Part shown: positions 1-64,000 of the stretch, in pieces
Layout of the letters: each line of letters opens with the position of its first letter
Position numbering within the stretch: the first letter of the stretch is position 1
Assembly: GCA_050942745.1 (NCBI GenBank)
Contig: JBMNNX010000001.1
Location: 22,938 to 86,937 of the forward strand
Reading direction: 5' to 3'
Origin: Myxococcales bacterium
GTDB taxonomy: Bacteria > Myxococcota > Myxococcia > Myxococcales > UBA5297
Length of the DNA stretch: 64,000 bases
The notes under the pieces: generated by a model
Seen by the model: only the letters and a program-made list of their open reading frames with translations
Told to the model about the DNA's origin: nothing
Databases searched by the model: none
Position numbers and translations under genes: made by a program

Positions 1-2
1 GC

Positions 3-422
3 ATCGCGGGCGCCGAGGTCGGCACGCTCGAGTCGGGCACGAACGCCGGCGCCATCACCCGGTACACCGGCGGCAAGGCCGGCTGGCCGTGGTGCGCGCG
101 GTTCGTCTCGTGGTGCTATCGGCAGGCTGGCATGCCGTTGCCCGGCGGCGACCAGTGGGCCGTCGCCGCCATCAAGTCCACGATCCGCCGGCTCGGGCAG
201 TGGCGCGACCCGCGCGACCTGCAGCCCGGGATGGCCTGCGTGCTCGCGACGCGCTCGCACATCGAGCTCGTCTCCAGTCCGGTGCACCAGGACGGCAAGC
301 TGACCGGCTTCATGACCATCGGCGCGGACACCCCGGCCCCTGGCGCCCGGCACCAGGGCGTCGGGCAGCGGTTCCGCGGGCTCGGCGGGCTCGAGGGCGG
401 CGGTTTTCCGGTCCGGATCTAG
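3..422 (+). CDS. CHAP-domain peptidoglycan amidase/peptidase, C-terminal part (5' end lies outside the window)
   Basis: The frame is open from the window edge to TAG at 420-422. The translation ...GKAGWPWCARFVSWCYRQAG...TRSHIELV... carries the Cys (PWC) and His (SHIE) motifs typical of CHAP/NlpC-like amidases. Confidence 0.6.
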   Translation: MAGAEVGTLESGTNAGAITRYTGGKAGWPWCARFVSWCYRQAGMPLPGGDQWAVAAIKSTIRRLGQWRDPRDLQPGMACVLATRSHIELVSSPVHQDGKLTGFMTIGADTPAPGARHQGVGQRFRGLGGLEGGGFPVRI

Positions 423-437
423 ATCGAGGGCGGCCCG

Positions 438-1421
438 CTACTGCGCGAGCGCCGCCTTCAGCCGCTTGCGCAGATCGCTCGCGACCACGACGACCTTCTG
501 CCCCCCGCGCACGCCGACGAAGGCAAGCCCCATCCGCCGCAGCCACGCGAGCGGCCCGGAGGGCGGTCGCGCGGTCCAGTAGAAACCGTCGGCCTCGTCC
601 AGGCCGGGCTTCTCGACCGCGTCCAGGTAGCGCATCGCCCCTCCGCGCTCGAGGATCTTCGCGAGCAGCTCGCGCGCTTCGTCTGGCAGCCCGGCAACGA
701 GCACCTCGAGCTGCTCCTCGTCGCCGAGGTAGTCGGCGATAGCCTTGCGGCGGGCGGCGCGCGGGGCGCCGAGGGCCGCGTCCGGCAAGTCGAGGCCGAG
801 GATGTCGAAGATGGCGCTGGCCCAGTCCGAGGGCAGGTGCGCGAGCAACGCCTCGAGAGTCGCGGGCTCGGGCAGAAGCTTCTGCTCAGCGCTCTGCCGC
901 ATGCGGACCTCGTCGGCGGTGACGGGCTTGCCCCGGAAACCGGTCAGCGAAGGCATCAGCGTCTGCTCGCCGGTCAGCACGTTGGTCTCGGCGACGAACG
1001 CGGGCAGCTCGCCGACGCGCCGGAGGATCTCCGCGTCATCGACCCTGGCGACCGTCTCGTAGTCGAACACCCCGCCGGCGAGCCGGTCGCCGAGCCTCTC
1101 GAGCAGCCGCGAGCGCAGATCGATAAGCTCGCGCCAGACCTTCTCAAGCTCCTCGGCGTGCGCGGGGACGTCCTCGGGCGAGAGGCGCTGGGCCTCGCGC
1201 AGCCCGACGTACAGGTAGACGTTCGCCGCGCAGTGCTCCCAGGCGTCGAGCTCGCTGGCGATGGCCGCGCGCGACACCTCGCCCGCCTCGATCGCCCGCT
1301 CGATGCCCAGCTCGAAACAGCAGGTCCGGTCGGCGAGGACCGCGACGCGATCGAGCAGCCACTCGAGGCGCGGCGTCCCCGGCTCCCAGGGCAGCTCGGG
1401 CCAGGGGTTCGGGTCCTTCAT
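438..1421 (-). CDS. uncharacterized cytoplasmic protein, paralog of 60838..61815
   Basis: ATG at 1419-1421, 327 aa, no signal peptide. It shares motifs with the 325-aa ORF at 60838..61815: WEP, EWLLDR, AGEV, LDAW, MR.SAEQ..LP, LPSDW, and GLDEADGFYW..RPPSGPLA.LRR.GL.FVG. Confidence 0.75.
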   Translation of the reverse strand: MKDPNPWPELPWEPGTPRLEWLLDRVAVLADRTCCFELGIERAIEAGEVSRAAIASELDAWEHCAANVYLYVGLREAQRLSPEDVPAHAEELEKVWRELIDLRSRLLERLGDRLAGGVFDYETVARVDDAEILRRVGELPAFVAETNVLTGEQTLMPSLTGFRGKPVTADEVRMRQSAEQKLLPEPATLEALLAHLPSDWASAIFDILGLDLPDAALGAPRAARRKAIADYLGDEEQLEVLVAGLPDEARELLAKILERGGAMRYLDAVEKPGLDEADGFYWTARPPSGPLAWLRRMGLAFVGVRGGQKVVVVASDLRKRLKAALAQ

Positions 1422-1531: not shown

Positions 1532-2704
1532 CTAGCCGGCCGCCTTGCCGCAGCTCGGGCAGAACTTGGCTCCCGGGGCGAGCTCGGTGCCGCACTCGCA
1601 CTTCTTCGGCCCCGCCACGGGCTTGCCGCAGTTGGAGCAGAACTTCGCGCCGGGCGCGAGCTCGGCGCCGCACTCGCACTTCGGGTCGACGGCGGCGAGC
1701 GGCTTGCCACAGGAGCTGCAGAACTTGCCCGGAGGGGTCTGCGAGCCGCACGAGGGGCAGCGGATCGTCTGCGGCTGCTGCACGGCCTGCTGCTGCACCA
1801 ACTGCTGCTGGGCGAACATGTTGGCCATGCCGAAGCCCATGCCCATCCCCATGCCGCCGAGCGCGCCGCTGGCGCCCTCGCCGCCCTTGGCCATGCCCTG
1901 GCCGGCCCCGCGCATCATCTCCGCCTGCGCGACCGCCATGTAGGCCGGGTTTTGGGCGAGCGCCATCCGCCGCTGGTCGTCGGCGATGGCCGTGTTGCGC
2001 CGGTTCAGCTCGGCCTTGTCCTCGTCGCTGATCGAGAGGACGAAGTTGCCGAACTGTACGACCTGGATCCCGTAGCGATCGATCTCGTCCTTGATCTGCT
2101 TGAGGACCGCCTCCTGCAACTCGAGCTTGAAGTGCGGGCTGATCATCTTGTTGAGCGACCAGCCCTGCTCGCCCAGCTCGCCGACGGCATCCGACATGTA
2201 CTTCATGAGGATGCCCTTGAACCAATCGAGGAAGGCGTTGTTGGTCTGCAGCTCCTTGCCCGAGCCGACCATCCCGAAGATGAGCTTCTCGGGGTCGGTC
2301 ACCTTCACCGAGAAGTCGCCGTAGACCATCGCGTCGCACATCATCTGCGTGACGGTGTCGGTCACCGAGCCGAGCGGGCCACCGAACTTGATCGAGGGCA
2401 CCTCGCGGGTCGAGACGAAGTAGAGCTCGGCGACAAAGAGGTTGCCGTCGGTCACCTTCTCGAGCAGCGCCGAGAGGAAGGGGATGTTCTTGGCGTCAAG
2501 GCTGTAGGTGCCGCCGGGGCCGAGGTGGCCAGCCACCTTCCCGTCCTTGACGAAGATCGCCATCTCGTCGGGCTGGCAGGTGAGCTGCGTCAGCATCCGG
2601 ATGTTCTTCTCCGGGTACCGATAGATGATGTCCTGGCGGGCCTCATCGGAGCGGGCGATGAAGTTGCGCTTGGCCTCGTTGGCGATGGAGCTGAAAATCC
2701 CCAT
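1532..2704 (-). CDS. SPFH/band-7 family protein with three C-terminal zinc ribbons (YdjI / 'virion core protein'-like)
   Basis: Start re-set to ATG 2702-2704 (MGIFSSIANEAKRNF...), with GGAG upstream. The SPFH-like body is followed by a Gly/Met/Gln-rich linker and three C..C-(10-12)-C..C ribbons (CPSCG..FCSSCG, CECG..FCSNCG, CECG..FCPSCG). Confidence 0.7.
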   Translation of the reverse strand: MGIFSSIANEAKRNFIARSDEARQDIIYRYPEKNIRMLTQLTCQPDEMAIFVKDGKVAGHLGPGGTYSLDAKNIPFLSALLEKVTDGNLFVAELYFVSTREVPSIKFGGPLGSVTDTVTQMMCDAMVYGDFSVKVTDPEKLIFGMVGSGKELQTNNAFLDWFKGILMKYMSDAVGELGEQGWSLNKMISPHFKLELQEAVLKQIKDEIDRYGIQVVQFGNFVLSISDEDKAELNRRNTAIADDQRRMALAQNPAYMAVAQAEMMRGAGQGMAKGGEGASGALGGMGMGMGFGMANMFAQQQLVQQQAVQQPQTIRCPSCGSQTPPGKFCSSCGKPLAAVDPKCECGAELAPGAKFCSNCGKPVAGPKKCECGTELAPGAKFCPSCGKAAG

Positions 2705-2746
2705 GTCGTCTCCTTCCTTCGGTGGCGCCCAAAAAAATGCGCGCGA

Positions 2747-2776
2747 ATCGTAACCTGCTCGCGCCGATAGCTGCAA
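2747..2776 (-). promoter_or_regulatory. candidate sigma70-type promoter for the SPFH gene
   Basis: Minus strand TTGCAG (2771-2776), 18-nt spacer, TACGAT (2747-2752), about 45 nt upstream of the ATG. The -35 sits inside an 8-bp inverted repeat, GCCGATAG..CTATCGGC (2764-2771 / 2804-2811). Confidence 0.3.
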
Positions 2777-3045
2777 TTGGCGCGCCCCCTTGGCGGGCGT
2801 AACTATCGGCCCTCGATTTCCGGCAGAACGAGCCTGCTCGCGGCGCGCTCCAGCGGTGGTTTTCGCCGACAACAGGCGTGCCTTCCCAACCGCGCTTCGC
2901 GCCGCTCCACTCCCGGCCGATTCGACCGGGCCCAAGACCCAACTTGCGTCGGTCGCAAGTTATGCCGGAGTGCGACCGAGCCTGCCCCGCGACCTCGCTC
3001 GCGCCGGCCGCAAGCTGCGCGCCGGGCCCTCCGCCCGTTGCTGAG

Positions 3046-23921: not shown

Positions 23922-24701
23922 TCAACTCGGCTTCTGCAGCTTCTCGATGAGGCGCTCCTCGGCCTTCGTGAGGCTTCGTCCCACCGAGCTCTCGAGCTCT
24001 TCGCGCGTCAGGGCGCCGACGCCGTCGCGGTGGATCGCCATCAGCACGTTCGCCCGCTGCGCCGACTGCAACGCATCGTGGCAGTCGCGAAAGAGCACGA
24101 GCGGGACGTCGTCGCCGAGCGCGGCGACCCGCTCGAGGTGGCGGCGCAACAGCTCGAGCGGCGGCGTCTCCGGCGGCAGTCGCTCGGTCGCGATCTGCTC
24201 GGGTAGCGAGAGGTGGTCGATGCCCGCCGAGTCGACGGTCACGAGCATCGCGCCGTCGCTCAGCTCGCCGCACAGCTCGACGACTCGCAGCCGGCGCGGG
24301 ACGACACCCATGATCTGCATCAGCCGCGCGAAGCCCTTCGGCCGCACCTGAGCCGCCGAGGCGCGCACGCGGCCGTCGGCGGCGACGAAGCCGCGCGAGA
24401 CGCTCTCGAGGTTGGGGAGGGCGCGCGCCACGGTCAGGTCCACGACGTCGCCGACGTGCGTGAAACCCGCGGAGGCGAGCTCGTGGCTGACCGCCTCGTA
24501 CCAGCCTCGGTCGAGCCGCGGGTACTCCTCGAGCTTCACGTCGCGGTACTCGTGCGCGCCCACGAAGACCTGCCCCATCCGCTTCTTCAAGCTGTCGGCC
24601 TGCCTCGTGAGGCGCTCCTCGCGGGAACTGCGGAGCATGCCCGGAAACAGGGCAAGGAGCACGAGCACGAAGATCGCCGCCAGCAACAGCCACCCGACCA
24701 T
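23922..24701 (-). CDS. membrane-anchored hypothetical protein
   Basis: ATG 24699-24701 with GAGG upstream. A single N-terminal TM helix, WLLLAAIFVLVLLALF. I recognise no motif. Confidence 0.55.
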   Translation of the reverse strand: MVGWLLLAAIFVLVLLALFPGMLRSSREERLTRQADSLKKRMGQVFVGAHEYRDVKLEEYPRLDRGWYEAVSHELASAGFTHVGDVVDLTVARALPNLESVSRGFVAADGRVRASAAQVRPKGFARLMQIMGVVPRRLRVVELCGELSDGAMLVTVDSAGIDHLSLPEQIATERLPPETPPLELLRRHLERVAALGDDVPLVLFRDCHDALQSAQRANVLMAIHRDGVGALTREELESSVGRSLTKAEERLIEKLQKPS

Positions 24702-25100
24702 GGAAAAAACCTCGCAGGAAGGCGGTCTACGCAGGTTCGGTCCGTTCCCGTGACCATCCTCTCCTCGCCTGCACTGCCCTCGACGGGCACTACTCTACTC
24801 TCGGAGCTTTTCGCGGCGGCCTCGCGCCGCGGCCGCCGGCAGCCCTTCCGCTTGGCGATCACTCCGGAAAGCGGGAGAATGCCCACCGCTGTACGCTGGG
24901 TGCCGGCTATCAGAAACGCCCCAGCTAGCGAAGGATCGAGAGGACACCAGGACAGTCACGACGCCGAGCCAGTGAGGCGCCCCTCGCGAGCGGCAGGAGG
25001 CTTCGCGGGCGGGTGTCGCGGGAGCTCGGCGGCTTCGCGACCGCAGGCGCAGATCACCGCTGCCTGCGCCCTCGCACCCTCGGAAGGAAAGCGGCCAACG

Positions 25101-28595
<3,495 letters not shown>

Positions 28596-28625
28596 GGACT
28601 CGTTTCGTCGGAGGACGCCGTACCC

Positions 28626-29717
28626 ATGAAGAGGACGACCGCATCCGTCCTGGCCGCCGCAGCGGCCTTACTCGCAATCGCGCCGGCCGCGGCCGCGCAG
28701 AGTTCCGCGGGCGACAAGGCCCCGAGCGCCCAGGCAGCGCAGGCCAAGGCGGACAGCGCGCCCGGCGCCACTCAGGCGCCCGCCGCTCAGGCACCGGCCG
28801 AGCGCCCCTGGGCCCGCGGCGTCTCGCCCGAGGACCAGAAGAAGGCGCTCGCCCTGTTCAAGGAGGGCAACGCGCTGCTCAAGGAGTCGGTCTTCGTCCA
28901 GGCGGCTGCCCGATACCGTGAAGCGCTCGGGCACTGGGACCACCCGGCCATCCACTACAACCTCGTGCTCGCGCTGCTCAACCTCGACCAGCCGCTCGAG
29001 GTGCACCACCACCTTCAGAAGGCGATGGAGTACGGGCCCGAGCCGCTCGATCTCGAGAAGTTCGAGCAGGCCAAGGCCTACAAGCTGCTCGTCGAGAAGC
29101 AGCTCGCCCGCGTCAAGATCCGCTGCTCGGTCGAAGGCGCCCAGATCACGATGGACGGGCGGCCGCTGTTCGTCGCCCCGGGCGAGTACGAGGGCTTCGT
29201 GCGCCCCGGGCCACACTCCATCGTGGCGACGAAGGAAGGCTACCTGACCAACGAGACCAGCCGCGCGCTGCCGGCCGGCGAGACGACGACGCTCGACATC
29301 GAGCTGCTCACCGCGGCCGATCTGACCGAGTACCGACGCCGCTGGGACGCCTGGAAGCCCTGGTCGGTCGTCGCCGCCGGCGTGGTCGTCGCCGCGGTCG
29401 GCGGGGGTCTGCACTACACCGGCATCGACAAGATCCGCCAGTTCGACCAGGGGATTCAGGCCTGCGGCGGCTGCGTGCCCTCGGCGGACCTCGAGAGCAC
29501 CCGGACCACCGGCACGCGCATGCAGGGCATCGGCATCGGGGGCTACGCGGTCGGCGGCGCGGCCCTGGCCACCGGAGCGGTGCTCGTCTACATGAACCGC
29601 CTGCAACCCTACCAGGTCGCGCCGGGCGCCGAGGCCAAGCCCGCCGAGCCGGCGGTGAGCATCGCCCCGCTGCTCGGCGGCGAGACCAACGGCATGTCAG
29701 CCACCTTCCGTTTCTAG
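28626..29717 (+). CDS. exported TPR-like / PEGA-domain protein with C-terminal TM segments
   Basis: Signal peptide [28 protein letters not shown]-like block [19 protein letters not shown]...[14 protein letters not shown] segments [17 protein letters not shown] and [30 protein letters not shown] 30 nt after the kinase stop. Confidence 0.7.
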
Positions 29718-29727
29718 AGGTCGAGCG

Positions 29728-36870
<7,143 letters not shown>

Positions 36871-40347: not shown

Positions 40348-40977
40348 CTACCGCTGCGCCTGGAGCTGGGCAGACTTCGGGCTTCGGGTCTGCGAGACGA
40401 CGACGGTCTTCGCCTTCGGATCGCCGTGGACCCGGAAGGTCGCCGGCACCGACTGGTTCGCCCAATGCCTCCCGCTCTTCTGGAGCTGGAAGTGCAGGTG
40501 TGAGCCGCAGGAGAAGCCGGTCGAGCCGACCGTGCCGAGGAGCTGTCCGGCCTTCACCCTCTGGCCGGGCCGCACGAAGACCTTGGAGAAGTGCAGGTAC
40601 TGCGTCTCGTAGCCGCTCTCATGCGAGAGGATGACGTAGTTGGCCCACGGGCCGGCCTCGCGGAAGCAGCCGCCCTGCGTCGAGTCGCCGCGCGCCAGGC
40701 GCACGACGCCGTCGTGGGCGGCGACGACCGGGGCACCTTCGGGGGCTCGGAAGTCCCAGCCCCAGTGGTCGCGCCCGACGTGGCTGAAGGTGCCGTGGGC
40801 CTGCGAGACTTCGACCTCTATCCCGTAGGGAAACGGCAGCTCCAGCTCGACGCCGGTCGGCTGCATCTCCTCCGCGGGGACGGGCGGCTCGCCCCACTGC
40901 GCCATTGCGGGCGCTGCTGCTCCGAGCGCCAGTGCCACGACGCCCAGCCTTAGTGTGTGAAGTACGTGCGGTTTCAT
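40348..40977 (-). CDS. M23-family (LytM-type) metallopeptidase, exported
   Basis: Start re-set to ATG 40975-40977. Signal peptide MKPHVLHTLRLGVVALALGAAAPAMA. H..GWDF, ...HDG.V... and GSTGFSCGSHLHFQL motifs. Confidence 0.8.
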   Translation of the reverse strand: MKPHVLHTLRLGVVALALGAAAPAMAQWGEPPVPAEEMQPTGVELELPFPYGIEVEVSQAHGTFSHVGRDHWGWDFRAPEGAPVVAAHDGVVRLARGDSTQGGCFREAGPWANYVILSHESGYETQYLHFSKVFVRPGQRVKAGQLLGTVGSTGFSCGSHLHFQLQKSGRHWANQSVPATFRVHGDPKAKTVVVSQTRSPKSAQLQAQR

Positions 40978-41106
40978 ATCGAGGGCTCCCAACAGGCGCC
41001 CCCGTGAAGCGATTCCGCGTAAGCCTGCGAAATCACTTCATGAACGGGGACCGGGCCCTCGAACCGGTGCGATGAGCGAAAGGGGCTTGGACGGCCGCCG
41101 AGGCGC

Positions 41107-59263: not shown

Positions 59264-59535
59264 GGCGCTCTCTCCACCCTTTCGACAACCGCCAGGCAGC
59301 GCGGGCTCTCGCCCCGAGGCGACAGGCGGGCCAGCCTGCCGCCGGCTGCTACAGGTTGACACAGGGAACCGCCGGCAAGTGTAGGGTGTAGGACCAAGCG
59401 GTCAATTTTCCGGCCGGGCTGCGGGCGGGCTCTCCGAGGGAAGCCCGATCGATCGTCGCCCGAGCGTCAGGGCTCTGCCGTCGACACCGGCAAGGCTGCT
59501 ACACTCGCGGGGCCTTGGTCCCCCGGAGGAGACAC

Positions 59536-60816
59536 ATGCGCACCCGGATCCTCTCCCTCGCTCTTATCGGGCTCATCGCCTGTGGCAAGGAGCCCGAGCC
59601 GCCGGTCGAGCAGCCGGACGCTGGCGAGCAGCCGCCTCCCGTCTGCCCAGACCGCAAGGGCATCATCTGTCCGTGGGCTGGAACCGGCGCGCAGGGCTTC
59701 GACAGTGACCTCAAGCCGATCCTCGAGTCGCAGCTCGACCAGCCGACCGATCTCGTCTTCACCGGGGACAACGTCGCCTACGTCGTCGACCGGGGAAACC
59801 ACCTGGTTCGCAAGGTGACCCCGGAAGGCACGTTCGTGTCCGTGATGGGCGCGGCCAGGCGGGCAGGCGACGGCGCTCACAACGAGGCGGATTCCTTCGC
59901 TCCGGGCGTGCCTGGAATCACCGTTGCGATCAACGAGCCGACCAACGCCGTCGTCATGCCCAACGGCTCGGTCGTCGTCGCGTGTTGGCGAAACCACAAG
60001 CTGCGCACGCTCACCCCGGCGACGGGCAAGGTCTACATCTCTGCTGGCTCGTTCCAGTGCGCGAGCTCGCCGGCCTGCAGCGACACGACCCCGCCCCGCA
60101 ACGGCGATGGCAAGTCGCCGCTCGATGCGCTCTTCGACTTCCCCAGCAAGCTCGCGGTCAACTCGCTCGGAGAGCTCTTCATCGTCGACCAGCGCGTGCA
60201 GCGCATCCGCCGCATCGACGCGCGAGGCTCCGAGATCGTGACCATGGCAGGCAGCGGCAAGACCGGTTATCTGGGCGACGACGGCCAGCCGACCAAGGCC
60301 TACTTCCACTTCGACAACTCCCAGACCCCGAAGCCGAGCGGCGGGCTGGCGTTCGACGACGCCGGCAACCTCTATGTCGCCGACTCGCTCAGCCACCGGA
60401 TCCGCAAGATCGAGTTCGTCGAGACGACGGGCCCGACCGGCGAGAAGCGCCTGGTCGCGACCAGGATCTCGCTGTTCGCGGGCCGGCCCGAGCTCGACGA
60501 CCTGGCGCCCGGCTACGAAGGCGACGGCGGGCCGGCCATCGGGGCGCGCTTGAACAACCCGACCGATCTCGAGATGGGCCCGGACAACAAGCTCTACTTC
60601 GCCGACACCGGCAACCACGTCATCCGCGCCATCGACCTTTCGCAGAAGACCATCGAGACGGTCGTCGGCACCGGCACCATGGGCGATTCGGGAGACTCCG
60701 GCGCAGCTTCGAGCGCCGAGCTGTCGCACCCGATGGGCATCGCCTTCGACAGCAAGGGCGTGCTCTATATCGCCGACACGGGCAACCACCGGATTCGCCG
60801 CGTGCCGCTGCCCTGA
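59536..60816 (+). CDS. NHL-repeat beta-propeller lipoprotein
   Basis: Start re-set to ATG 59536 (GGAGGAG at 59525-59531). Lipobox LIGLIAC. Repeated (V/A)D.GNH.(V/I)R(K/R)(V/I) motifs: VDRGNHLVRKV, ADSLSHRIRKI, ADTGNHVIRAI, ADTGNHRIRRV. Confidence 0.75.
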   Translation: MRTRILSLALIGLIACGKEPEPPVEQPDAGEQPPPVCPDRKGIICPWAGTGAQGFDSDLKPILESQLDQPTDLVFTGDNVAYVVDRGNHLVRKVTPEGTFVSVMGAARRAGDGAHNEADSFAPGVPGITVAINEPTNAVVMPNGSVVVACWRNHKLRTLTPATGKVYISAGSFQCASSPACSDTTPPRNGDGKSPLDALFDFPSKLAVNSLGELFIVDQRVQRIRRIDARGSEIVTMAGSGKTGYLGDDGQPTKAYFHFDNSQTPKPSGGLAFDDAGNLYVADSLSHRIRKIEFVETTGPTGEKRLVATRISLFAGRPELDDLAPGYEGDGGPAIGARLNNPTDLEMGPDNKLYFADTGNHVIRAIDLSQKTIETVVGTGTMGDSGDSGAASSAELSHPMGIAFDSKGVLYIADTGNHRIRRVPLP

Positions 60817-60837: not shown

Positions 60838-61815
60838 ATGAGCACACTTCACGACTGGCCCTCGCTGGCATGGGAGCCGCCCTCCGAACGCGCTGCCGAG
60901 TGGCTCCTCGACCGCACCATCGAGGTCGCCGCGCGAGCGCGGGCCTTCGAGGTCGGGCTCGAGCAGGCCGGCGAGGCCGGAGAGGTCGACCTCGCGCTCG
61001 TCGGCAGTGATCTGGACGCGTGGGACAAGTGGGCCGCTCGGGTGTTCGCGTACACGGCGATCGGCGAAGGGCTCGCGCTCCCTGCCGACACCGGCGCCTT
61101 CGCGCGGCGGCTCGAGGAGACCTACGGCCACTTGACCTGTGTCCGCGCTCGGCTGCTCGCCAGGCTGGGAGCCGAAGGGGCGGCGCGGGTGATCGAGCGC
61201 GAGGCGGCCGCGGAGATCGACCGCGCCCGCCTGCGCCAGCGAACGGATAAGGCGCCCGCCCTCGAGCTCATCGCGGGCGAGCAGGACCTCCAAGAGGTCG
61301 ACGCCCCGGTCGAAAGCCCGGTGAGGGCCGACGAGCTGCAGATGCGCAGCCAAGCCGAGCAGAGGCCTCTGCCCGACGGCGCGCGCCTGGGGGATCTTCT
61401 CGCGGCGCTCCCGTCCGACTGGCTGCGGGCGGTCTTCGAAAACCTCGAGCTGGCGCTCCCCGACGGCGCGCCGGCGCCAGCTTCGCGCTCCTCGGCTCGC
61501 CGGCAGGCTGTCGCCGAGCACCTCTTCGACGAACAGAACCTGAGCCTCATCGCCGAGAGCCTTGATCCCATCGAACGGGGGCTCGTGTCCGAGCTTCTCG
61601 CCGCGGACGGAAGCCTGCCCTACAAGCAGATCACCGAGACGTACGGGCTCGACGAAGCCGACGGGTTCTACTGGAGCGAGCGCCCTCCTTCCGGGCCGCT
61701 CGCGAGACTGCGCCGGCTGGGCCTCGTCTTCGTCGGCACGAGGAATGGCCAACTCACCGTGACCGTCGCCTGCGAGCTCCGGGTGGGCCTCCGAGAACTG
61801 CTCGCGGCGGAGTGA
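60838..61815 (+). CDS. uncharacterized cytoplasmic protein, paralog of 438..1421
   Basis: ATG 60838, 21 nt after the NHL gene stop. 325 aa and colinear with the 327-aa protein at 438..1421 (shared motifs listed there). Confidence 0.75.
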   Translation: MSTLHDWPSLAWEPPSERAAEWLLDRTIEVAARARAFEVGLEQAGEAGEVDLALVGSDLDAWDKWAARVFAYTAIGEGLALPADTGAFARRLEETYGHLTCVRARLLARLGAEGAARVIEREAAAEIDRARLRQRTDKAPALELIAGEQDLQEVDAPVESPVRADELQMRSQAEQRPLPDGARLGDLLAALPSDWLRAVFENLELALPDGAPAPASRSSARRQAVAEHLFDEQNLSLIAESLDPIERGLVSELLAADGSLPYKQITETYGLDEADGFYWSERPPSGPLARLRRLGLVFVGTRNGQLTVTVACELRVGLRELLAAE

Positions 61816-61909
61816 GCTCGCCGCGGGCGGACCGAAGCCGAGCCCTGTCGAAAAAGCGCCGCCCGCGCGGCTGCGCGGACGGCACCAAGGTCGCGTTCCT
61901 TTCGGCGGA

Positions 61910-62830
61910 TCAACGCACGTAGGTGAAGTGCCAGTACTCGCCAGACACGTTGTTGACGAAGCCGAACTTCGACGCGTTGGCGGCCAGCCAACGGTAGGCG
62001 CGCGTGTTGTAGCCGCCGACCCCTCCGATATCGACCGCGAGCCCCATCTGATGGTTGGAGTACCCGGGCTTCGCCGCGCGGGGCGAGCCGTAGCGCTGGT
62101 AGAGCGCCTGCTGCTGGGCGTAGGTTCGATAGCCGCTGGTGGTCGTCAGCCTGATGCCCGCCCGGCGCGCCGCGGCGAGCATGTCCTTGTAGGCCTGGGC
62201 GCAGCGAACGTTCAGGTATTGCCCCCCGCCGACCGGCGCGATGCGGATGCTGACGCGCTTGCCTCGGCTGTAGCCGGTAGCGGCGATCCCGCTTGAGCTG
62301 CTCGCGGAGGACGAGGAAGCGCTACTGACACCCGATGCGCCGAGCGCCGCCCAGGTCTTGGGCCCCACCACGCCGTCGACGGCCAGGCCGCGCGCGCGCT
62401 GGAAAGCCTTGACGGCCGCCAGGGTCTTGGGACCGAAGCTCCCGTCGACAGCGATGGAGTAGCCCTTGTTGCGCAGCAGCGTCTGCAGCGTCTTCACCGC
62501 CGAGCCCCGCGCCCCCGAGCGCAAGGTCGGCATGTTCTTGGCCGACGACGCGGACGAGGAGGAGGACGAAGCGCCCGAGCGCAGGGCGGCCCAGGTCTTG
62601 GGCCCCACCACGCCGTCGACGCTCAGCCCCGAAGCGCGCTGAAAGGCCTTGACGGCCTCCAGGGTTTTCGGACCGAAGCTCCCATCGACCGCGATGGAGT
62701 AGCCCTTGCTGCGCAGCAAGGTCTGCAGTGTCTTGACCGAAGTGCCGCGCGCCCCCAGGCGAAGGACGGGCGATCCGGATGATGACGACGAAACGCGCTG
62801 CGAGCTGCTCGATACGCCGGAAACGGGCAT
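61910..62830 (-). CDS. M15-family (VanY-like) peptidoglycan peptidase with two PG_binding_1-type domains, no signal peptide
   Basis: Start re-set to ATG 62828-62830 (AAGAGGGG upstream). Two copies of G.RG..VK.LQ.LL..KGY...VDG.FGP.T..AVKAFQ...GL.VDG.VG..TW.AL, separated by Ser-rich linkers. C-terminal YRTYAQQ...GYSNHQMGLAVDI...EYWHFTY (H..D..H zinc motif). Confidence 0.8.
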   Translation of the reverse strand: MPVSGVSSSSQRVSSSSSGSPVLRLGARGTSVKTLQTLLRSKGYSIAVDGSFGPKTLEAVKAFQRASGLSVDGVVGPKTWAALRSGASSSSSSASSAKNMPTLRSGARGSAVKTLQTLLRNKGYSIAVDGSFGPKTLAAVKAFQRARGLAVDGVVGPKTWAALGASGVSSASSSSASSSSGIAATGYSRGKRVSIRIAPVGGGQYLNVRCAQAYKDMLAAARRAGIRLTTTSGYRTYAQQQALYQRYGSPRAAKPGYSNHQMGLAVDIGGVGGYNTRAYRWLAANASKFGFVNNVSGEYWHFTYVR

Positions 62831-62952
62831 GTCGTACCCCTCTTGGTGTGCCCTTGGAGTATCGCCCGATCGGCGCAAAAGTTGCGCCGCCGGGCCCGAG
62901 CTCCCGCAGAGCCCGGGCACCTACATGTCCCACCCTGCGCCCGGCAGATGTG

Positions 62953-64000
62953 CTATGGGGACGCGAGCACGGCCGCACGAACCAGCAAGACGTCGTCGTG
63001 CACGCTACAGGTGCCGCCCTGTCCGTGCGTGACGCCATAGGCCAGGCGAGGCCGGCCGGCCGGGTCGAGCGAGAGCGCGACGTCCGCGCCAACGACGTTC
63101 CAGACGGAGATCGAGCACCCAGGCTTGAGGGGAACGGGGAGGCTTTCCTCGAGATCGCTGGTGCTCTCGACGAGCGTGCTGCGCCATCGGGCGCTGGATG
63201 ATTCGCACGACTGGTCGCAGCTCGCGAGCCCTAGGCCGTGGACAGACTGAGAGAAGTTGTCGATGCCTCCAGCGATCCGCGGTCGGTTGTTCGCATCGAA
63301 AGCGAGCGCAATCCCTTCCTCGGCAAACCGGTTGACAACGGGGACCCGCGCCGAGCTCCAGGCCGACGAGACCGTGCAGCCCGAATTGCACCACGCGTAG
63401 AAGGTCTTCTCGCTCTGCGCGGCTTCGCCGAGATCGCCCTCGTAGATCGCCATGCGCGGCCGACCGCTGCGGTCTGACCGCAGGTCGAACCGGCCGCCCC
63501 AGCCGAGCACGAAGAGCGCCCTGGCGCTCCAACTCGAGGCATTCAGACAGTTGCCATCGCACTCAGAATAGTAGATGTTGCCATCTCTATTAAAGGCGAC
63601 GCGCGGCTTGCCCGGGCCGGCGAAGTCCACCGCGATATCGTAACCCCGCACGTTCGACAGGTCGGCCTGCCGCCAGCTCGCCGCAACGGTGCAGTTCTGA
63701 GAGCAGGAAGCGAAGCGAGTCGAGCTCGGTCCTCGATGGACGATGACAAGGCTGCCATTCGGGTCGATGCCGAAGTAGCGGTCCCCCCACGGCCCGCCCT
63801 CGTTGGTCTGGAATACTTCGCCCGCCGTCCAGTTCCCCCGCCGAGAGCAGCCCGCCTCGCAACGCGCGAGCCAGTACGCGCCATTCGATCCGGTCCAGTG
63901 GTCGGAACCGAACCACGCGACGCGCGGCCTGCCCGCGGCGTCGAGCGCCAGGCTCGGGTAGGCTCCGTTGAGCCCCGCGACGCCGATGTCCGTTACGGTC
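62953..64000 (-). CDS. repeat protein (six or more ~45-aa units, propeller-like), 5' end outside the window
   Basis: I translated 63652-63999 by hand and the frame stays open to the window edge. Units have the form (L/F)..D..GRPR(V/I/L/M)A(W/F/Y)....(Y/F)..C...C.....W, for example LALDAAGRPRVAW..YWLARCEAGCS..NW and DFAGPGKPRVAF..IYYSECDGNCLNASSW. Confidence 0.65.
   Translation of the reverse strand, partial: TVTDIGVAGLNGAYPSLALDAAGRPRVAWFGSDHWTGSNGAYWLARCEAGCSRRGNWTAGEVFQTNEGGPWGDRYFGIDPNGSLVIVHRGPSSTRFASCSQNCTVAASWRQADLSNVRGYDIAVDFAGPGKPRVAFNRDGNIYYSECDGNCLNASSWSARALFVLGWGGRFDLRSDRSGRPRMAIYEGDLGEAAQSEKTFYAWCNSGCTVSSAWSSARVPVVNRFAEEGIALAFDANNRPRIAGGIDNFSQSVHGLGLASCDQSCESSSARWRSTLVESTSDLEESLPVPLKPGCSISVWNVVGADVALSLDPAGRPRLAYGVTHGQGGTCSVHDDVLLVRAAVLASP

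Follow-up and report, generated by a model that had tools for sequence, protein, structure and literature searches.

Two diverged copies of a gene pair in a Myxococcales genome: an unannotated acidic protein family beside signal-less cell wall hydrolases

Peptidoglycan hydrolases that lack an export signal need to be held harmless in the cell that makes them and then delivered by some non-Sec route. We analyzed a 64,000-nucleotide stretch of a genome of the order Myxococcales (GenBank assembly GCA_050942745.1, contig JBMNNX010000001.1, positions 22,938 to 86,937; referred to here as the window), at the two ends of which related genes, encoding paralogs A and B, each lie convergent with the gene of a predicted wall hydrolase. 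The two hydrolases have different catalytic domains, and neither shows a hydrophobic export signal where its N terminus can be read. The question is whether each paralog serves the enzyme encoded next to it and, if so, in what way. We conclude that partner and hydrolase probably form a real functional unit, and we propose, at a probability of about 40%, that each paralog binds, as its cognate partner in the cytoplasm, the hydrolase encoded next to it.

Two paralogs and the hydrolases beside them

A sequence-only reading of the window had described A and B as colinear paralogs. Both open reading frames were recovered with exactly the ends that it gave (Table 1), and BLASTP aligned the two proteins colinearly over their full lengths (150/332 identical positions, 45%; E, 2e-80). 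Most of the shared motifs that had been listed were present in both proteins (WEP, EWLLDR, AGEV, LDAW, LPSDW, and, near the C terminus, the largest common block, GLDEADGFYW..RPPSGPLA.LRR.GL.FVG), while one, MR.SAEQ, was inexact (MRQSAEQ in A and MRSQAEQ in B). Both paralogs are acidic, with isoelectric points (pI) of 4.86 (net charge, −15) for A and 4.68 (net charge, −20) for B; the pI of the partner proteins overall is 4.5 to 5.0. Hydropathy profiles revealed no hydrophobic N terminus (highest 10-residue mean within the first 35 residues, 1.45 in A and 0.77 in B) and no membrane segment (highest 19-residue Kyte-Doolittle mean, 1.2), in agreement with the earlier statement that neither protein has a signal peptide.

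Pfam, NCBIfam, PHROGs, and PADLOC returned zero matches for A or B, in line with the earlier reading, which recognized no named family for these proteins, and searches of the PDB by sequence (i.e., with a single sequence, the domain profile, or the family profile) gave chance-level matches only. A word-indexed search of 5.8 billion proteins identified eight relatives, all of which were from metagenomes or Myxococcales metagenome-assembled genomes (MAGs), and an exhaustive profile search of representatives clustered at 50% identity identified 17 proteins at E values of ≤1e-30, mostly full-length members. The full-length family is rare (approximately 20 clusters, all from metagenomes or Myxococcota MAGs), and no full-length member from a cultured organism or with a protein name was found. 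Scanning GTDB genomes and JGI metagenomes, with a strict exact-pattern step, detected the same few lineages only. In a plasmid collection, the only matches were to the unrelated PRiA4_ORF3 part of one relative (P0072). The ortholog of paralog B (P0007) sits in conserved synteny.

The hydrolase beside B is, as judged from its translation, a bona fide PG_binding_1 and VanY protein: Pfam assigned it two copies of PG_binding_1 (PF01471; 147.9 bits) and a VanY domain (PF02557; 74.2 bits against a cut-off of 25). Its start codon is most likely the ATG at position 62830 (MPVSGV...) rather than the GTG at position 62920, because the N terminus M[PA]VSxV is conserved in homologs. Sequence matches in the PDB comprised endolysin PG-binding domains and VanY-type and LdcB catalytic domains (E, 1.8e-12 to 7e-8), and PHROG endolysin families were also matched. 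The translation contains SNHQMGLAVD (H-x6-D) and EYWHF, which we take to be the zinc-binding residues of LAS enzymes. The protein is very basic (pI, 11.05; net charge, +31) and has no hydrophobic N terminus.

The hydrolase beside A is truncated by the window edge, and its visible part contains GWPWCARFVSWCY and SHIELV. Papain-type motifs consistent with the CHAP amidase that had been claimed are present (a candidate catalytic Cys in GWPWCARFV and a candidate His in SHIELV, both read from the sequence), but scores remained under the family cut-offs: the full-length ortholog (178 aa, locus L008) reached 21.8 bits for CHAP (PF05257; E, 2.7e-4; cut-off, 26), and the truncated window copy reached 20.1 bits for TIGR02594 (cut-off, 70.55). 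The truncated copy matched PHROG endolysin families (E, 7.5e-6), and no match to a solved CHAP structure was found. We therefore refer to this enzyme as CHAP-like only. The L008 ortholog is also strongly basic (pI, 10.99; net charge, +14).

The gaps between the convergent genes are exactly those reported earlier, namely, 15 bp on the A side (423..437) and 94 bp on the B side (61816..61909). With only 15 bp between the stop codons, the transcripts of A and the CHAP-like gene must overlap; in a sister species, this gap is 169 bp, and the overlap is thus not conserved.

Persistence of the pairing in other lineages

A wall hydrolase gene adjoins a family gene in six nonredundant arrangements (window A, window B, and loci L001, L024, L025, and L027), which include convergent, tandem, and divergent orientations and among which the remaining flanking genes vary. 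A neighbor-joining tree of the family separated two clean clades, with CHAP-type partners present only in clade A (two sub-clades) and VanY-type partners present only in clade B (three sub-clades). Within clade B, the order is NHL-repeat lipoprotein gene, then B, convergent with the VanY gene, both in the window and in its sister species; L001 and L024 have a tandem order, with the family gene followed on the same strand by a PG_binding_1 and VanY gene; and in L025 a gene for two PG_binding_1 domains and VanY is divergent from the family gene. Within clade A, the order SPFH gene, then A, convergent with the CHAP-like gene is found in the window and in three sources closely related to it, and in L027 a PG_binding_1 and CHAP-like fusion gene is divergent from the family gene. 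The members beyond the window that have a hydrolase neighbor are diverged (37 to 45% identity). In L001, a run of N (1590-1690) flanked by duplicated sequence, i.e., a scaffolding gap, lies within the VanY gene, and as a result the precomputed VanY call begins too late and carries no Pfam hit.

The proposal that the pairs are a functional module rather than chance synteny was supported by this recurrence beside diverged members in all orientations. A survey of the family members whose neighborhoods could be read, of the kind suggested earlier as a check, found hydrolases enriched next to family genes, and the lack of enrichment that had been named as a refutation was therefore not observed: a rough Fisher test comparing 6 of 18 flanking slots with 1 of approximately 86 other genes gave a p value of approximately 8e-5, which overstates independence because the lineages are related. 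Within the window, two of the three peptidoglycan-hydrolase-like genes (CHAP-like, VanY, and M23) occupy the four slots flanking the paralogs (hypergeometric p, approximately 0.013). When the VanY and CHAP-like proteins were used as tblastn queries over all loci examined, only the adjacent genes were detected, and the M23 peptidase was the only further wall hydrolase in these loci. A contig binned as Verrucomicrobiota (L018) was considered as an additional independent locus and rejected: its nt 1-250, which correspond to the end of the family gene and the VanY upstream region of the Myxococcaceae MAG contig L001, are almost identical to L001, after which the sequence diverges. From this junction, L018 is probably an assembly or binning chimera.

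The same observations bear on the possibility that there is no direct functional link, the pairs being synteny inherited in a narrow lineage and the true partner being another neighbor, e.g., the SPFH/zinc-ribbon protein in clade A or the NHL lipoprotein in clade B. The family is limited to a few related metagenomic lineages, and its contexts are not fully independent; the SPFH/zinc-ribbon gene lies upstream on the same strand in four clade-A lineages, which makes it a more frequent neighbor there than CHAP, paralog B begins 21 bp past the NHL gene, and several members have no visible hydrolase neighbor. However, the hydrolase adjacency persists through three relative orientations while other flanking genes change, which is hard to explain by inheritance alone, and the clade-specific pairing with two hydrolase types was kept after an old duplication (45% identity between A and B). 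The NHL neighbor, for its part, is kept in the sister species only. We consider inherited synteny to be unlikely.

Comparison of the two hydrolase types points to the origin of the pairs. The claim that the hydrolase families differ is correct for the catalytic domains (VanY versus CHAP-like), but the CHAP-type enzyme of L027 shares its N terminus, PG_binding_1, and a promoter-like motif with the VanY enzymes. It carries one copy of PG_binding_1 (80.1 bits), which shares approximately 60% identity with its counterpart in the window VanY protein, and begins as the VanY proteins do, with M-P/A/T-V/I and a Ser/Thr-rich stretch without acidic residues ahead of PG_binding_1; no acidic residue occurs within the first ~20 positions of the hydrolase N termini. 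The promoter-like motif of the window VanY gene (Table 1) is the sole match to CAACTT-N14-CGATACT in the 64-kb window (0.01 expected). It also occurs 5' of VanY in L002-type loci and in L024 and, as CAACTT-N13-CGAGAAT, 5' of the PG_binding_1-CHAP gene in L027 (consensus, CAACTT-N13/14-CGA[GT]A[AC]T, 28 to 55 nt before the hydrolase start codon). These shared features suggest that the pair was duplicated as a unit. From the sequences, the two loci seem to descend from one duplicated two-gene module, regulatory region included, in which the catalytic domain was later exchanged; we infer that the CHAP enzyme later lost PG_binding_1 in the window lineage.

The hydrolases are endolysin-like in that they carry PG_binding_1 at the N terminus and the catalytic domain at the C terminus and lack a signal peptide, and each pair might be the remnant of a domesticated phage lysis cassette (i.e., an endolysin and a phage-derived accessory protein). 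Their modular architecture is that of endolysins of phages infecting Gram-negative bacteria (phiKZ gp144 type; PDB 3bkh and 7rum), and the PHROG and PDB endolysin matches point the same way. Unlike those endolysins, the window hydrolases are chromosomal and paired with a nonphage family. The gene content of the window is that of an ordinary core chromosome (e.g., ABC-2 transporter genes, LpxK, KdtA, hrcA-grpE-dnaK-dnaJ, LppC, and FtsK), and the window gene survey found no holin, spanin, or other phage gene near the paralogs. The partner has no PHROG match, no relative in 2.9 million viral contigs, and no fold match among viral protein models. Because of this core-chromosome context and the lack of viral relatives of the partner, we rate a phage origin of the pair as highly improbable.

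A mobile C-terminal domain and the role of the partner

The AlphaFold2 model of paralog A (mean predicted local distance difference test score [pLDDT], 77) consists of long helices (residues 19 to 124), a disordered linker (139 to 168), and the C-terminal domain. In one clade-B sub-clade (P0008, P0010, and P0018), the linker has an extra insertion of approximately 50 residues and is strongly acidic overall (net charge, −15 to −27). Modeled alone with 48 diverse sequences, the C-terminal domain (pLDDT, 94.8; predicted template modeling score, 0.90) comprises a helical subdomain followed by a winged-helix-like unit, with a conserved 17-residue insert (G.DE.DGF.W...PP.SGP) between its second and third helices. 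The exhaustive profile search detected 498 proteins at E values of ≤1e-3, most of which share only the C-terminal ~160 residues. A scan of 87 superfamily members showed fusion of the domain to TPR repeats in approximately 40%, to PRiA4_ORF3 in nine, to a SEC-C motif in nine, and to HEAT repeats in some, and Pfam, NCBIfam, PHROGs, and PADLOC hold no entry for it, distant members scanned included. Given these fusions, the C-terminal domain is an unannotated mobile domain, of which the window family is a narrow branch that adds an N-terminal helical bundle.

We propose that each paralog is a chaperone, inhibitor, or escort of its adjacent hydrolase. The very basic hydrolase, which has no Sec signal, would be synthesized in the cytoplasm and bound there by the acidic partner, most plausibly via the variable N-terminal helical bundle. 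The partner would then keep the enzyme inactive and stable or escort it to a non-Sec exit route, and the conserved winged-helix-like C-terminal domain would supply a function common to the whole superfamily. VanY-type activity in the cytoplasm could trim the D-Ala-D-Ala end of wall precursors. We favor this proposal because the partner is acidic, each clade is paired with one enzyme type, the partner gene lies upstream in the tandem loci, and the domain is fused elsewhere to TPR, HEAT, and SEC-C, which are protein-interaction modules. The order in L001 and L024, with the partner gene upstream of the hydrolase gene, is the usual one of a chaperone or adaptor followed by its effector. A chaperone, inhibitor, or export adaptor role, as had been suggested from the sequence, agrees with the charges of the two proteins, which are opposite in sign, and with their lack of signal peptides; we infer both the physical binding of partner to hydrolase and the direction of its effect (i.e., inhibition, stabilization, or export).

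The main rival to this proposal starts from the C-terminal fold and the upstream regions of the hydrolase genes: the family would control the hydrolase gene, either as a transcription regulator of the winged-helix type or as an accessory factor specific to its promoter. A conserved promoter-like motif precedes the hydrolase genes themselves; it is not sigma-70-like, and its CAACTT box resembles the −35 boxes of extracytoplasmic function (ECF)-type promoters. Searches near A and B revealed no promoter of the sigma-70 type. Upstream of the motif, the window VanY gene has an imperfect inverted repeat (Table 1), and related repeats occur in L024 (CCTACATGTAGG) and L001 (GCCTACATCGTAGGC). In these three VanY lineages, the repeat, to which the regulator would bind, is separated from the −35-like box by 23/24 or 32/33 nt, spacings that differ by approximately one helical turn. 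(The motif and repeat positions in the other loci are 1437-1498 in L024, 520-546 in L027, and 1359-1369 in L001.) The occurrence of pairs in divergent, convergent, and tandem orientations is also typical of a regulator and its target. However, neither of the two divergent loci (L025 and L027) has the inverted repeat, and it is also missing 5' of the window-type CHAP gene (L008).

The domain itself is similarly ambivalent. Its confidently modeled fold resembles most closely, in Foldseek searches of the PDB, the winged helices of MarR/ArsR-type regulators and of TFIIH p52/Tfb2 (probability of up to 0.99 for the MarR-like 3lfk and of 0.95 for p52, the latter with a template modeling [TM] score of 0.45 over ~129 columns), and Arg/Lys residues are conserved in its third helix (LRR) and wing. 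These matches are not significant (E, 0.13 to 1; TM score, at most 0.55), and no helix-turn-helix or winged-helix family in Pfam or NCBIfam matched the paralogs at E values of up to 0.1 to 1. Unlike MarR/ArsR regulators and p52/Tfb2, the domain has the 17-residue insert, and its winged-helix part (the last 85 residues) is neutral to acidic (net charge, −5 to +5). Across ~500 diverse proteins, there is hardly any variation in the third helix or in the DGFxW...PPxSxPL block beside it, unlike in a sequence-specific recognition helix, and a two-domain, highly acidic protein of 325 aa is atypical of a simple repressor. On balance, we regard a regulatory role as somewhat unlikely.

Eleven of the closest outgroup proteins (within P0023-P0052) have a QLSLF, QLDLF, or DLPLF motif within their first 30 residues, which we take to resemble a beta-clamp-binding motif. 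In several of them, the motif is followed by PWR..D.W. The same pattern had no match in residues 46-90. The window family has no QLSLF-like motif.

Several points weigh against the binding-partner proposal. Acidic pI values are common in cytoplasmic proteins, as are basic values in wall hydrolases. Because the hydrolase genes are preceded by a promoter-like motif of their own and, for three lineages, by an inverted repeat, the partner and hydrolase genes do not form an operon. The conserved Arg/Lys residues on a modeled winged-helix-like fold would also suit DNA binding, and the QLSLF-like sequences of the closest outgroups hint at a DNA-related ancestry. No secretion-system genes were found among the window genes. 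Finally, the pairing is conserved in six arrangements but is not universal: no hydrolase is present in L028 (clade A), for which both flanks are visible, or on the visible side of L012 and L029 (clade A), and the visible side of L026 (clade B) has a PETase-like hydrolase in place of a wall hydrolase.

Genomic setting, known systems, and implications

The features of the two loci and their neighbors are listed in Table 1. No Rfam families or tRNAs were found in the window. The SPFH/zinc-ribbon protein encoded upstream of paralog A has a Gly/Met/Gln-rich linker, and between the two genes there is a hairpin with a T-rich run after it. The same gene is the upstream neighbor in the clade-A loci L008/L015/L019, L012, L014, and L028; across four clade-A lineages, it is at least as consistent a neighbor as the CHAP gene. 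On the B side, the NHL lipoprotein gene and paralog B are possibly co-transcribed. Directly upstream of the VanY gene and on the same strand lies a gene for a 456-aa protein without a Pfam or PHROG match (window 62953-63999, −), which is also present in the sister species (L002, 12241-13611). Elsewhere in the window, a frame of ~1460 codons from stop to stop (24207-28592, +) encodes a fusion of a Ser/Thr kinase with an nSTAND1 NTPase, and it is followed by genes for a PEGA-domain protein (28596-29714, +) and a 2403-aa protein with DUF4215 and InlB-B-like repeats (29659-36867, +).

Table 1. Positions and descriptions of the paralogs, hydrolase genes, and associated features in the 64-kb window
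Feature	Position	Strand	Description
CHAP/NlpC-P60-like hydrolase	1..422	+	5'-truncated by the window edge; 139 codons visible; convergent with paralog A
Paralog A	438..1421	−	Open reading frame, 327 aa; helical bundle, disordered linker, and winged-helix-like C-terminal domain (residues ~165-327)
SPFH/Band_7_1 protein	1532..2935	−	Three zinc ribbons (Pfam); same strand as paralog A, 110 bp upstream
Peptidase_M23 wall hydrolase	40348..41037	−	Adjoins no paralog; in-window control for the adjacency count
NHL-repeat lipoprotein	59515..60816	+	Pfam; same strand as paralog B, 21 bp upstream
Paralog B	60838..61815	+	Open reading frame, 325 aa; architecture as in paralog A
Terminator-like hairpin	61858..61871	−	Convergent gap, downstream of the VanY gene
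Endolysin-like hydrolase (VanY type)	61910..62830	−	306 aa; Ser-rich N terminus, two PG_binding_1, and VanY (LAS zinc peptidase); convergent with paralog B
Promoter-like motif CAACTT-N14-CGATACT	62858..62884	−	28-54 nt upstream of the VanY start codon
Imperfect inverted repeat GGGACATGTAGGTGCCC	62915..62931	−	Upstream of the promoter-like motif; candidate operator

Several known systems resemble parts of this arrangement, which has the outline of a chaperone with its effector or of an inhibitor with its enzyme but matches none of the named families of that kind. Class I chaperones of type III secretion systems (e.g., SycE for YopE) are small acidic CesT-like alpha/beta dimers of ~130 to 170 aa that are encoded beside their substrates. 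Like these chaperones and the adaptors of type VI systems, the paralogs are acidic cytoplasmic proteins beside a cognate enzyme without a signal peptide, with the partner gene upstream in the tandem loci and one enzyme type for each paralog. Unlike the type III chaperones, the window partner is a 325-aa protein with a helical bundle and a winged helix, and it has no sequence or fold relationship to them; the identification of the paralogs as CesT-like chaperones was rejected on size and fold, although they are acidic and adjacent to the enzyme. The immunity proteins of the Tae/Tai and Tse1/Tsi1 pairs and the ankyrin self-protection protein Bd3460 of Bdellovibrio have signal peptides, act in the periplasm, and are encoded co-directionally with the toxin gene. 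These systems also give a wall hydrolase a dedicated neighbor gene, with different cognate partners for different hydrolase types. The window partners, in contrast, have neither a signal peptide nor a membrane segment, the orientation of the pair varies, and a role as periplasmic immunity proteins was rejected on the absence of the signal peptide. In mycobacteria, the SEC-C/TPR protein Rv0613c/MSMEG_1285 is needed for the surface exposure of the signal-less adhesin HBHA (PMC6032435). Compared by description, it is likewise a cytoplasmic helper of an exported protein without a signal, and SEC-C and TPR are fused to the domain in members of the superfamily, whereas the window proteins have neither.

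A more specific form of the proposal is that the hydrolases act as lytic effectors in contact-dependent predation by a route other than Sec, with the acidic partners as their dedicated chaperones or sorting adaptors. The hydrolase N termini (M-P/A-V-S-x-V, then a Ser/Thr run, with no acidic residue) presumably resemble type III secretion signals. We consider this version a long shot because there are no secretion genes nearby and cultured myxobacteria yielded no member of the family. Prey lysis by Myxococcus xanthus depends on a needleless type III-like apparatus for which effectors are yet to be identified (PMC12075869).

A literature search for a partner of signal-less hydrolases, or for a pairing of this kind, found no description, and annotation is lacking for the partner family as well as for its C-terminal domain. 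The full-length family is limited to metagenomic lineages and is rare; the analysis nevertheless brings to light a confidently modeled domain of ~160 residues that is present in ~500 protein clusters and has no entry in the four databases searched. Overall, the pairing is a solid and testable lead, and the two diverged copies of the two-gene module provide natural specificity controls. It bears on the means by which predatory and developmental myxobacteria deliver their lytic enzymes. If the hydrolases were indeed effectors of predation, the window would hold a new family of chaperones based on an unannotated, winged-helix-like domain, together with candidate effectors of the M. xanthus type.

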